Positions 28,566 to 31,496 of a stretch of DNA of 32,000 nt are shown one piece after another. Position numbers and translations under genes: made by a program. This DNA is from Candidatus Saccharimonadota bacterium. GTDB lineage: Bacteria; Patescibacteriota; Saccharimonadia; Saccharimonadales; Saccharimonadaceae. Position 1 is the first letter of the stretch, and each line of letters opens with the position of its first letter. The DNA is taken from the NCBI GenBank assembly GCA_049296095.1, contig JBAQRV010000001.1, forward strand, positions 30,001 through 62,000, written 5' to 3'. A model generated the notes under the pieces. That model ran no database searches, was not told the DNA's origin, and saw only the letters and a list, made by a program, of their open reading frames with translations.

Positions 28566-31496
28566 ATGCAGCGATATAATCCGGCCGAAATTGAGCCGAA
28601 GTGGCAAAAAGTTTGGGAAGACCAAAAAGCCAATGAGGTAACGAATGATACGTCTAAAGTGAAGACGTATGTTTCGGGTATGTTCCCGTATCCTAGTGGC
28701 GCTGGTATGCATACTGGGCACGCTTTCTCTTGGGCGATCGTTGATGCGATTGCTCGTTTCCATCGCCAACACGGCGAAGCAGTCCTCAACCCAATTGGCT
28801 GGGACACGTTTGGATTACCAGCTGAAAACTATGCCATTAAAACTGGGACAGCACCTGCCAAAGTAACCGCCGAGAATATCGCCAACTTCAAGAACCAATT
28901 CAAACGGATGGGTGTCAGTATTGATTGGTCCCGTGAGATTAATACCAGCGATCCTGAATACTATCGTTGGACGCAGTGGGTATTCACGAAATTATTTGAG
29001 CGTGGCCTCGCCTACCAAAAGGAAAGCTTGCAATGGTGGTGCCCGGTAGATAAAACTGTCCTGGCTAACGAGCAAGTCGAAGGCGGTCATTGTTGGCGCT
29101 GTGGCAGTTTGGTTGAAAAGAAATCGATGAAGCAGTGGTTTTTCAAAATCACTGAATATGCCGATGCTTTGTTGGATGAAATTGAAGACCTCGATTGGCC
29201 GCAGAAGATCAAGACGGCTCAGACGAATTGGATTGGAAAGTCTGTGGGTGCTGAGATTGAATTTGCACTCTCGGAAACGGCTTCGCTCCCGGAATCTGAC
29301 GATTCTGGGGCTGCAGATGCTTCCTCAACTGTAAATTCAATCCCAGCTATCACAGTCTTCACCACACGACCGGATACAATCTTCGGGGCTACTTTCTTAG
29401 TATTAGCTCCCGAGCATCCACTAGTTGAGTCTTTAGGTGTGGGGGATTTTAAGGAATTCACCGAAAAGTATGTCAAAGAGGCAATTAAGAAATCTGAGAT
29501 CGAACGTACTAATGATACCAAGGAAAAGACAGGTGTCTTTACGGGTAGCTATGCAATTAACCCAGCGACGGGCGAGAAGGTACCGATTTGGGTAGCTGAC
29601 TATGTGCTCGGGGGTTATGGTACTGGCGCGATTATGGCCGTTCCTGGACACGATGAGCGGGACTTCGCCTTCGCCGAGAAGTATAGCTTGCCGATTGTGA
29701 CTGTTGTTGAACCAGTCTTTGGTGAGCCGCAAGGTGATGAAACGCATAAGGTTGGCGTCAATGTGATTGTGCGTGATCCTCGGACTGACAAAGTGATTGT
29801 TCTGGACTGGGGTCCACGCAAGGAGCGTTTTGGTGGCCGTATGTTGATTGGCGGTGGCGTTGATGGCGATGAAGACGTCGTCGAATGTGCGATTCGTGAA
29901 ATTGCCGAGGAAACTGGGTATACGGACGTGCGCTTGGTTTCGCGATCTGATGTTATTGGCCATGGCTATTTCTATTCAAACGTCAAAGAGAAGAACTATT
30001 CGATCGATGCTCATGGATTGTATTTTGAACTTGTCAGTGATGCTAAAGATGCGACCAATATGGACGACGGTGAAGTTGGCAAGTTCGAGGTGACGTGGCA
30101 GCCAACTAACCAGGTTGCGGCTCAGCTCGATGATGGCATTCACCGTTACTTCTTTGAAACGCTTGTCGAGAAAAAGATTTATCACGGCGAAGGACTGCTT
30201 GTGAATAGTGGCGAGTTTGACGGCATGCCAACCAGCGATGCGCGTGAAGAAATTGTTGCTTGGCTTGAACAGCAGAAACTTGGCCGCAGCAAGACTACCT
30301 ACAAGATGCGCGATTGGCTGATTAGCCGTCAGCGCTATTGGGGTGCGCCGATTCCGATTATTCATTGTCCAGAGCACGGTGCGGTGGCGGTACCTGAAGA
30401 TCAGCTTCCTGTCATCCTGCCTGAAATTGAAGACTACGCACCAAAAGGTGATGGTCTGTCGGCACTGGCTCGGGCAACAGATTGGGTCAATACGACTTGT
30501 CCTGAATGTGGTGGTCCTGCAAAGCGCGAAACCGACACGATGGACGGCTATGCATGTAGTAGCTGGTATTTACTTCGGTATACCGACCCGCATAATGCAG
30601 CGCGGGCTTGGGACCCTGAAGTCGCTAACTACTGGAATCCTGTCGACTTTTACGTTGGTGGTGACCACGCGGTGGCTCATTTGCTCTACGTTCGTTTCTG
30701 GACGCACGTTTTCCACGAGATGGGACTGGTGAACTTTAAAGAACCAGTCAAAAAGTTAATTTATCACGGCTATATTAACGCCGAAGATGGCTCAAAGATG
30801 AGTAAGAGCAAGGGTAATGTGGTGGATCCACTTGATGTGATCGACCAGGGCTATGGCGCTGATGCACTGAGAACTTATTTGCTCTTCATGGGCCCGATTG
30901 AACTCGATGCTAGCTGGGATTCTCATGGTATCGCTGGTGTCTACCGATTCTTGAACCGTATCTGGACACTCGCTCAGCAGTATCAATCTGCCGAGAAGAA
31001 TATTACCAAGAATGATGCCGCGATCCGCGTTGCCCAACACAAAACGATCAAGAAGGTGACTGATGATTTCCGTCGGCTGAGTTTTAACACGGCAATTTCT
31101 GGCCTGATGGAATATGTGAACGATCTCTACAAGTTTAAGATCGATGGATTTTCCGAAGAAGTCTGGACTGAAGCATTAAAGACCCTCGTCCAGTTAGTGG
31201 CGCCGTTCGCACCACACATGGCTGATGAGTTGTGGAGTCAATTTGGTGAGCAAGGCCTCGTCCAAAATGCCGCTTGGCCACAGTGGGATGATGCCCTGAC
31301 AACCGAGGATATGATCACGATTGCTGTCCAGGTGAATGGTAAATTGAGAGGCGAGATTTCAATTGCCAAGGATCTCGACGCTGAAGCAGTGAAATCACTT
31401 GCCCTGGCACATGAGAATGTCGCTAAGTTTGTTGGTGAACAAAAACCGACCAAGGTGATTTATGTTCCTGGTCGGTTGGTGAGCGTTGTACTGTAG
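28566..31496 (+). CDS. leuS: leucyl-tRNA synthetase with an inserted Nudix domain
   Basis: 976 aa. HIGH-type [14 protein letters not shown], KMSKS, and CP1 editing motifs TTRPDT and [31 protein letters not shown] is present. A Nudix box lies at 29853-29921. Confidence 0.95.
   Translation: [976 protein letters not shown]

Follow-up and report, generated by a model that had tools for sequence, protein, structure and literature searches.

Structure of the leuS gene and its Nudix cassette

The 32,000-nt stretch of DNA analysed here (hereafter the window; positions 30,001 to 62,000 of contig JBAQRV010000001.1, assembly GCA_049296095.1) derives from a Candidatus Saccharimonadota bacterium. It carries on the forward strand, at 28566..31496, leuS, an open reading frame (ORF) of 976 amino acids (aa) encoding a bacterial-type leucyl-tRNA synthetase (LeuRS) with a nested Nudix cassette. 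The host protein was identified by NCBIfam profile comparison (TIGR00396 leuS_bact, 1001.3 bits against a cutoff of 548.4) and matched the Thermus thermophilus LeuRS (1h3n) with an E value of 2e-237. The cassette corresponds to aa 389-536 (148 residues; 29730..30173, forward strand) and, as delimited by alignment, Pfam and an AlphaFold2 (AF2) model, comprises an N-terminal leader of ~10-20 aa followed by a Nudix alpha/beta/alpha fold. A preliminary description of this DNA had proposed a 976-aa LeuRS with a complete Nudix domain, and this proposal was borne out by TIGR00396, by the Pfam family PF00293 and by the AF2 model (pLDDT 94).

The boundaries of the insert were set by alignment to insert-less relatives and to the T. 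thermophilus LeuRS, of which residues 1-368 align to residues 1-388 of the query and residue 375 resumes at query residue 537. The insert-less relatives show '...LPIVEVIE', a linker of 2-9 residues (KPAEDDEQ in P0082, for instance) and then 'YHGEG...'. The match to PF13603, the profile of the CP1 editing domain, was interrupted by the cassette, as aa 221-391 correspond to profile positions 2-150 and the 64 aa behind the insert to positions 155-185. When aa 389-536 were deleted in silico, a single contiguous match over positions 2-185 of 185 was obtained (216.5 bits). CP1 is accordingly split into part one (aa 221-388; 29226..29729, forward strand) and part two (aa 537-575; 30174..30290, forward strand; PF13603 positions 155-185 of 185, T. 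thermophilus residue 375 onward). A surface loop of CP1, ~35-40 residues before the end of this domain, hosts the cassette, contrary to the earlier proposal that it lies behind CP1. The segment first delimited as the insert, 29748-30176, is indeed Nudix, albeit its start was placed 18 nt and its end 3 nt too late.

On the whole protein, PF00293 (NUDIX) matched aa 394-531 with an E value of 2.2e-13 (profile positions 2-132 of 134). The profile check recommended in the preliminary description, run on segment 29748-30176, also gave a significant match (E 2e-14, 54.2 bits against a cutoff of 21.1, profile positions 4-132 of 134), and no Pfam family other than Nudix, inteins included, matched that segment. 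The 23 residues at aa 430-452 (29853..29921, forward strand) fit the Nudix box pattern Gx5Ex7REUxEExGU perfectly; both the position of the box and the presence of all catalytic Glu residues had been described exactly, and no other Nudix box was found in the six frames of the window. Two further residues are specific to the family of this cassette. One is K474 (29985..29987, forward strand), an invariant Lys downstream of the box in the motif K..N[RQ], which is aligned with the Lys of the 'SKD' motif of the flax-rust effector AvrM14 and is found in 94 of 94 inserts (see below). The other is W511 (30096..30098, forward strand), an invariant Trp in the insert alignments and a candidate base-stacking residue.

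The AF2 model of aa 383-537, generated with 21 diverse homologues, reached a pLDDT of 94 and a pTM of 0.89, and displayed the strand and helix order of the Nudix sandwich, with the helix of the Nudix box at residues 56-68 of the model. The cassette is thus predicted to fold as a Nudix alpha/beta/alpha sandwich with the box on a loop-helix-loop. Foldseek with this model yielded 545 PDB matches at E <=1e-3, and the 50 listed were Nudix proteins throughout; the top match was Enterococcus faecalis 2azw (TM 0.71, probability 1.0), and further matches included Escherichia coli RppH (TM 0.63-0.69), the Aquifex diadenosine tetraphosphate (Ap4A) hydrolase, NUDT15, MutT1 and NudB. The structural check proposed earlier was answered in part: the Nudix domain forms a discrete fold in the model of the cassette, and the model of the full-length protein (mean pLDDT 73.5, pTM 0.56, weak in CP1) is too weak for placing it as a lobe.

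The PDB profile search with the cassette also returned 2azw first, followed by AvrM14-A/B over the full length (E 9e-9) with the family-specific Lys and Trp aligned, and, at lower ranks, MutT, lupin Ap4A hydrolase, NudB, NudI, DIPP/DDP1, Dcp2 and RppH. Structures of AvrM14 are listed in PMC12018790. The best PDB sequence matches were 2b06 and 2azw, both of unknown function, and all functional NCBIfam models scored far below their cutoffs. The cassette hence shares the fold (TM 0.63-0.71) and a complete box with small Nudix hydrolases such as 2azw, RppH, 3i7u and AvrM14, and can be aligned over the whole domain, including the Lys and Trp, with AvrM14 and 2azw. It differs from the small hydrolases in its sequence (identity 13-22%), in being embedded in another enzyme and in its own N-terminal leader.

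Authenticity of the insert

Three NCBI records from metagenome-assembled genomes (MAGs; e.g. MFZ2126534.1) contain the exact 976-aa protein, annotated as 'MAG: class I tRNA ligase family protein [Candidatus Microsaccharimonas sp.]'. Independent Logan assemblies contain it too, and the contigs concerned reach 710 kb. Over 6435 nt, the window and JBAQET010000004.1 (assembly GCA_049286885.1) have the same sequence. The GC content of the insert (49.0%) is close to that of the rest of the gene (48.9%), GC at third codon positions is likewise the same, and neither terminal repeats nor mobile-element marks were detected at the insert boundaries, where only short chance repeats occur.

These data bear on the possibility that the insert is an artefact of assembly or gene calling, or an intein- or transposon-like selfish element removed before the protein functions. 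Besides the generic worry about MAG sequences we found no support for an artefact or for such an element, and the probability of either scenario is close to nil. The ORF is continuous and uniform in composition, the identical protein comes from three NCBI accessions and Logan, the identity to JBAQET010000004.1 extends over 6435 nt, terminal repeats are missing, and Nudix is the only family matched on the segment. An assembly artefact, raised in the preliminary description as an alternative, was ruled out by the identical protein in three MAGs and Logan contigs and by >90 related protein clusters with the same layout. An intein or mobile element was rejected on account of the lack of repeats, of extra motifs and of any compositional difference.

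Conservation of the cassette in close relatives

We compared the query with its 120 best LeuRS relatives, which are 74-91% identical to it outside the insert. A Nudix domain (PF00293) occupies the same site in 93 of the 120, and a linker of 2-9 aa is found instead in the other 27, the bodies of which are 81-86% identical to the query. In the 94 inserts available (the query and the 93 Saccharibacteria relatives), G430, E436, R444, E445, E448, E449, G451, K474 and W511 are invariant without exception, and most other positions vary freely. Between the query and one close relative, P0001, the dN value was 0.048 for the insert and 0.060 for the LeuRS body, with synonymous sites saturated (proportion of synonymous differences, pS, 0.74-0.87). 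Within the cassette class of the query (class A), the identities of insert and body were 93 and 90%, 81 and 79%, and 75.5 and 74%, respectively. Judging from these values, the cassette is under purifying selection like LeuRS itself, and we regard it as functional, its conservation being no less strict than that of LeuRS, which ranks among the most conserved proteins of the cell. The untouched catalytic set argues that this function is probably catalysis.

The same comparisons are relevant to the idea that the domain is a non-catalytic module, namely one with a structural, regulatory or nucleotide-sensing role, or a passenger that is almost neutral and tolerated in a permissive loop. In favour of such a module, its presence is polymorphic among close relatives, and in Parcubacteria there are copies in which E436 and R444, or a strict box altogether, are missing. 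Nevertheless, the catalytic set, K474 and W511 are retained in 94/94 inserts despite an identity of only 20-40% at other positions, the dN value does not exceed that of LeuRS, and E445, E448 and E449 are almost invariant throughout the family. A non-catalytic role is thus improbable in our judgement.

Exchange of cassettes between related lineages

The inserts fall into at least five classes, which are 20-42% identical to one another and reside in LeuRS bodies 80-89% identical. Both the cassette classes and the insert-less forms are scattered over the LeuRS body tree; this is a simple neighbour-joining tree, and the main incongruence rests on direct pairwise nucleotide comparisons. The clearest case is a pair of sequences from the same metagenome, P0001 and P0005. 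Their bodies are mutually closest (86.6% nt identity, pS 0.49), and both are more distant from the query (79-80% nt identity, pS 0.70-0.74). P0001, however, carries the cassette of the query (93% aa identity), and P0005 carries an unrelated class (~23%). Along the gene, the nucleotide identity between the two is 85-95%, falls to 25-50% only over aa ~365-545, and then recovers. The reverse situation was seen in P0124, of which the body is only 43-54% identical to the query and the insert is 45% identical, closer than the cassettes of other classes in bodies 80-89% identical to the query. Since the cassette classes disagree with the LeuRS tree, the Nudix domain is an exchangeable unit that passes between related lineages. 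Homologous recombination in the conserved flanks within leuS would be the simplest reading of this exchange.

Two other sources of the cassette classes were considered and rejected. Rapid divergence in situ disagrees with the insert evolving as slowly as the body within a class, and with the conflict between class and body tree. The other source was recent capture from a neighbouring gene. Between nusB and rnc of the same genome, 1.46 kb downstream of leuS and ~960 nt past the 3' end of the window, a separate Nudix protein of 164 aa is encoded (L003 7395-7889). This stand-alone protein belongs to a different, Ap4A-hydrolase-type family and matches the cassette profile only around the box. Its best PDB matches over the full length are Ap4A/ApnA hydrolases (3i7u, E 4.7e-15; Ndx1, CT771 and NUDT2), and it is 98% identical to its counterpart on the contig of P0001.

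The cassette family in LeuRS of the Candidate Phyla Radiation

An exhaustive HMMER search of 1.84 billion representative proteins, for which the insert served as the query, retrieved only 188 hits at E <=1e-3, and the 149 examined were mostly LeuRS or LeuRS fragments. A word-index search with the insert alone gave three proteins, two of which are LeuRS fragments, and a single-protein scan of genome collections added two further LeuRS-embedded copies. Taxon names are known for only part of the hits. On the evidence of these sequences, the cassettes form a distinct family defined by the Nudix box, the invariant Lys (K474) and Trp (W511) and the short N-terminal leader, and this family occurs almost only inside LeuRS of Patescibacteria (Candidate Phyla Radiation, CPR), occasionally as a free protein of ~165 aa. 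The free-standing members are ~160-200 aa long and have the same leader and signature. Across 153 domain representatives, E445, E448, E449, K474 and W511 are nearly invariant.

The layout is not a one-off and is widespread in LeuRS of Saccharibacteria and Parcubacteria, often with two or three copies. Four insertion sites were recognised (query numbering): S1 at aa 388/537, the site of the query; S2 at aa 207/209, just before CP1 and often with a tandem pair; S3 at aa ~240/262, in the N-terminal hairpin of CP1; and S4 at aa 642/653, in the second zinc-binding (ZN2) loop. Among 120 relatives of P0133, a LeuRS with two Nudix domains, we counted one Nudix in 46, two in 59 and three in 15, and the source names of these relatives include Candidatus Parcubacteria, Taylorbacteria, Paceibacterota and Patescibacteria. 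A Candidatus Nomurabacteria genome has the same LeuRS layout. Cassettes from different sites are interleaved in sequence, one S2 copy being 63% identical to an S1 copy elsewhere; therefore, copies moved between sites.

Database entries of multi-insert Parcubacteria LeuRS (Candidatus Taylorbacteria, Nomurabacteria and Paceibacterota) share with the query the Nudix family at S1, for instance in L006 and L007. They differ in often adding one or two Nudix domains at S2, S3 or S4, whereas the query has a single copy. CPR LeuRS also carry alpha/beta-hydrolase, HAD and Ham1/ITPase inserts and can be up to 1722 aa long.

Several proteins with unusual combinations of domains were encountered in these searches. 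P0253, P0314, P0276 and P0280 are LeuRS of 1300-1722 aa with one to three Nudix domains plus Ham1/ITPase, HAD phosphatase and/or alpha/beta-hydrolase, and in P0253 the Ham1 domain lies between the catalytic and anticodon-binding domains. P0238 (1318 aa) combines an M17 (leucyl) aminopeptidase with two GNAT domains and two domains matching the cassette profile, one of which is recognised as NUDIX by Pfam. Going by this domain composition, LeuRS is not the only protein that accretes small enzyme domains in this way. In P0228 and P0261 (~250 aa), the cassette-family Nudix is preceded by a domain resembling the anticodon-binding domain of class II aminoacyl-tRNA synthetases (aaRS). The match is weak (HGTP_anticodon, E 1.7e-3, below the cutoff; NCBIfam ProRS model, E 3.4e-6), and these two proteins may either reveal another connection with tRNA binding or be pieces of a different synthetase.

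Putative function of the LeuRS-embedded Nudix domain

The interpretation that we prefer, and hold to be reasonably probable, is an intact LeuRS with an independently folding Nudix pyrophosphohydrolase, which serves as an autonomous, exchangeable cassette in the CP1 loop. The Nudix domain would then be a second, autonomous catalytic centre within the LeuRS polypeptide, and would hydrolyse a nucleoside-diphosphate-X compound with Mg2+ through the glutamates of the REx2EE motif. The essential gene leuS would carry and co-express the cassette, and recombination between conserved leuS flanks would swap, remove or add versions of it. The cassette would be needed for neither aminoacylation nor editing, because close relatives lack the domain. 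As for the substrate, we tentatively favour a house-cleaning nucleotide pyrophosphate (a dinucleoside polyphosphate NpnN, a non-canonical NTP or an RNA 5'-end-linked nucleotide) over a LeuRS-specific product; confidence in this class is low. As a group, the PDB profile neighbours of the cassette act on polyphosphate-linked nucleotides and RNA 5' ends. The Ham1 and HAD domains co-inserted in other CPR LeuRS favour a house-cleaning role, and nucleotide housekeeping in a reduced genome, one of the roles suggested in the preliminary description, is plausible.

Several observations weigh against this proposal. The nearest solved structures are only 13-22% identical to the cassette and span several specificities. 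In Parcubacteria, a subclade that includes the second copy of tandem pairs has other residues in place of E436 and R444, and a strict box is missing from a few proteins; catalysis is therefore not kept universally in the family. The near-exclusive tie to LeuRS and the repeated occupation of four loops are hard to reconcile with simple hitch-hiking, and the tie hints at a functional link with LeuRS or tRNA-Leu. Finally, the full-length model (pTM 0.56) is too uncertain to place the Nudix domain relative to the active sites or the tRNA.

One of the alternatives ties the cassette to a by-product of its host. aaRS make Ap4A, and a dedicated Ap4A/Ap3A hydrolase on LeuRS could destroy the dinucleoside polyphosphates formed from leucyl-adenylate and ATP. 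The structural neighbours of the cassette, which include 3i7u, the lupin enzyme 1f3y and RppH bound to Ap4A (7sp3), are in keeping with this activity. Nevertheless, the stand-alone Nudix of the Ap4A-hydrolase type is encoded in the same genome, and the cassette matches ApnA hydrolases much more weakly than that protein does; lupin Ap4A hydrolase, for instance, aligned with the cassette in the region of the box alone (single-sequence search, E 0.059; profile search, E 3e-7), and characterised ApnA hydrolases are not its closest full-length matches. Close relatives do without the cassette, and the multiple, partly degenerate copies in Parcubacteria are unlike a simple by-product scavenger. Ap4A clearance, which the preliminary description had listed foremost, is thus weakened by the nearby stand-alone enzyme and the insert-less relatives, and we rate it as rather unlikely. 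Clearance of aminoacyl-adenylate had also been suggested; to our knowledge, hydrolysis of aminoacyl-adenylates is not a known Nudix chemistry.

Another alternative is directed at RNA. A Nudix domain on CP1 might remove a nucleotide-pyrophosphate-linked group from tRNA-Leu or another RNA, with a 5'-triphosphate, an NAD or Np4A cap, a 3'-pyrophosphate or an ADP-ribose-type adduct as candidates, and the turnover of cassettes would then reflect conflict with toxins or phages. E. coli RppH, Dcp2 and AvrM14-A/B are among the neighbours of the cassette, the last with a full-length match (E 9e-9) and equivalents of K474 and W511, and AvrM14 reportedly decaps mRNA in vitro. In addition, CP1, in which the cassette is nested, binds the acceptor end of the tRNA; the presence or absence and the swapping of classes resemble loci under diversifying or frequency-dependent selection; and one member of the family follows an HGTP_anticodon-like domain, albeit with a weak match. 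On the other hand, RppH models (PRK00714) gave 15-23 bits against cutoffs of 116-139, which indicates likeness at the level of the fold only. Selection within classes is purifying, not diversifying; the co-inserted Ham1, HAD and alpha/beta hydrolase domains point to small-molecule chemistry; and comparisons with PHROG and viral (BFVD) proteins gave only generic Nudix matches, on which grounds a phage origin or affinity was also rejected. An RNA-end enzyme is consequently a doubtful candidate. The tie to LeuRS, the site on a domain binding tRNA ends and the turnover of cassettes may nonetheless keep an RNA- or tRNA-directed role alive.

In its most specific form, the LeuRS Nudix would be an RNA-end repair or decapping enzyme acting in cis on the tRNA bound to CP1, and might strip tRNA-Leu of a pyrophosphate-linked adduct or of a cap that a toxin or stress has added. 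We consider this version unlikely. If it is true, an arms race would have left its trace in the way CPR LeuRS swap, lose and multiply their cassettes, and this LeuRS would be the first aaRS to have tRNA detoxification built in.

Comparison with known synthetases and significance

The query shares the HIGH and KMSKS signatures, CP1, and the anticodon-binding and C-terminal domains with bacterial LeuRS of known structure (T. thermophilus 1h3n/2byt and E. coli 4aq7). It differs from the T. thermophilus enzyme in two respects: it has the 148-residue Nudix domain in a CP1 loop of 6 residues there (368-375), and it has no leucine-specific domain (T. thermophilus ~580-635), a module that precedes KMSKS in the E. 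coli enzyme too. In the latter region, query aa 739-743 (window 30780-30800), just before KMSKS, correspond to T. thermophilus 579-636, ~56 residues being absent. The leucine-specific module is variable among bacterial LeuRS, and its absence does not exclude membership.

Two known proteins come closest in architecture. The NadM-Nudix protein (NMN adenylyltransferase/ADP-ribose pyrophosphatase, PRK05379) likewise combines a nucleotidyltransferase of the HIGH superfamily with a Nudix domain in one polypeptide, and the cassette matches its Nudix part weakly (E 0.003-0.011, 15-17 bits against cutoffs of 354-409). There, however, the Nudix domain is joined end-to-end to a small adenylyltransferase, whereas it is nested in the editing domain of an aaRS here. 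The IleRS with a GNAT domain (NF040702, ileS_w_GNAT) is a curated precedent for a class Ia aaRS with an extra enzyme domain, but involves another synthetase and another accessory fold; the query scored 59.9 bits against a cutoff of 1999, through the synthetase core. Thus, an aaRS with an accessory enzyme domain has precedent in itself, and what is unusual here is the nesting inside CP1, the multiplicity, the exchange of cassettes and the spread on the scale of a phylum. Full-text literature searches returned no publication on a Nudix domain in an aaRS, LeuRS included, and the architecture is already visible in the precomputed Pfam annotations of many database entries.

aaRS are among the most conserved enzymes, and their architectures in bacteria are thought to be fixed, domain accretion being regarded as mainly eukaryotic. 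Here, an essential bacterial synthetase acts as the carrier of one to three copies of a second enzyme domain, and the host gene stays 80-90% identical during the exchange. The CP1 and ZN2 loops evidently tolerate the insertion of whole domains, which is useful for engineering, and the cassettes can serve as a marker of recombination in uncultured CPR bacteria and provide a natural experiment on it. They also constitute a Nudix family of their own, and its almost exclusive association with LeuRS needs to be explained in biochemical terms. Should the activity be tied to tRNA or adenylate chemistry, it would represent a new kind of quality control.

Other features of the LeuRS and of the window

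The HIGH signature of the synthetic site (HTGH, aa 49-52) is encoded at 28710..28721 (forward strand), and H49, G51 and H52 are invariant in an alignment of 58 LeuRS sequences. CP1 part one contains the Thr-rich motif TTRPDT (aa 266-271; 29361-29378, forward strand) and a segment of 15 residues at 29619-29663 (forward strand); the VPGHDERD segment with the conserved editing Asp corresponds to aa 359-366. The KMSKS loop (aa 744-748) is encoded at 30795..30809 and the anticodon-binding domain (PF08264, E 1.3e-24; aa 822-941) at 31029..31388, both on the forward strand. An acidic, Ser-rich variable segment at 29271-29345 (aa ~236-260) forms part of the N-terminal hairpin of CP1 and was modelled with a pLDDT <50. 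This hairpin loop is site S3, which in Parcubacteria LeuRS (P0136, P0171 and L007) holds a domain of ~165 aa, either Nudix or alpha/beta-hydrolase.

The gene order around leuS is that of an ordinary chromosome, with ligA, a PGPGW membrane protein and a Mur ligase preceding it. The Mur-ligase ORF extends over 27192-28538 with a TTG start at 27192, and is 21 codons shorter in the public record (427 aa, start at 27255 of the window). A 102-aa RRM_1 protein is called at 26128-26436 on the minus strand, in a stretch without any ORF of >=120 aa. Farther upstream, tRNA-Cys(GCA) adjoins tRNA-Leu(UAA) at 19556-19738 (forward strand), the latter (19652-19738) being a cognate substrate of the LeuRS studied here. 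The remaining genes of interest are all on the forward strand: a Fic/DOC family gene followed by a bacterial type IB topoisomerase at 15012-16663; a type I restriction-modification operon (hsdM, hsdS and hsdR) at 8128-14218, with a HEPN/AbiU2-like gene (10863-11363) between hsdS and hsdR; and a heliorhodopsin gene at 6628-7392 (PF18761, E 2.4e-100).

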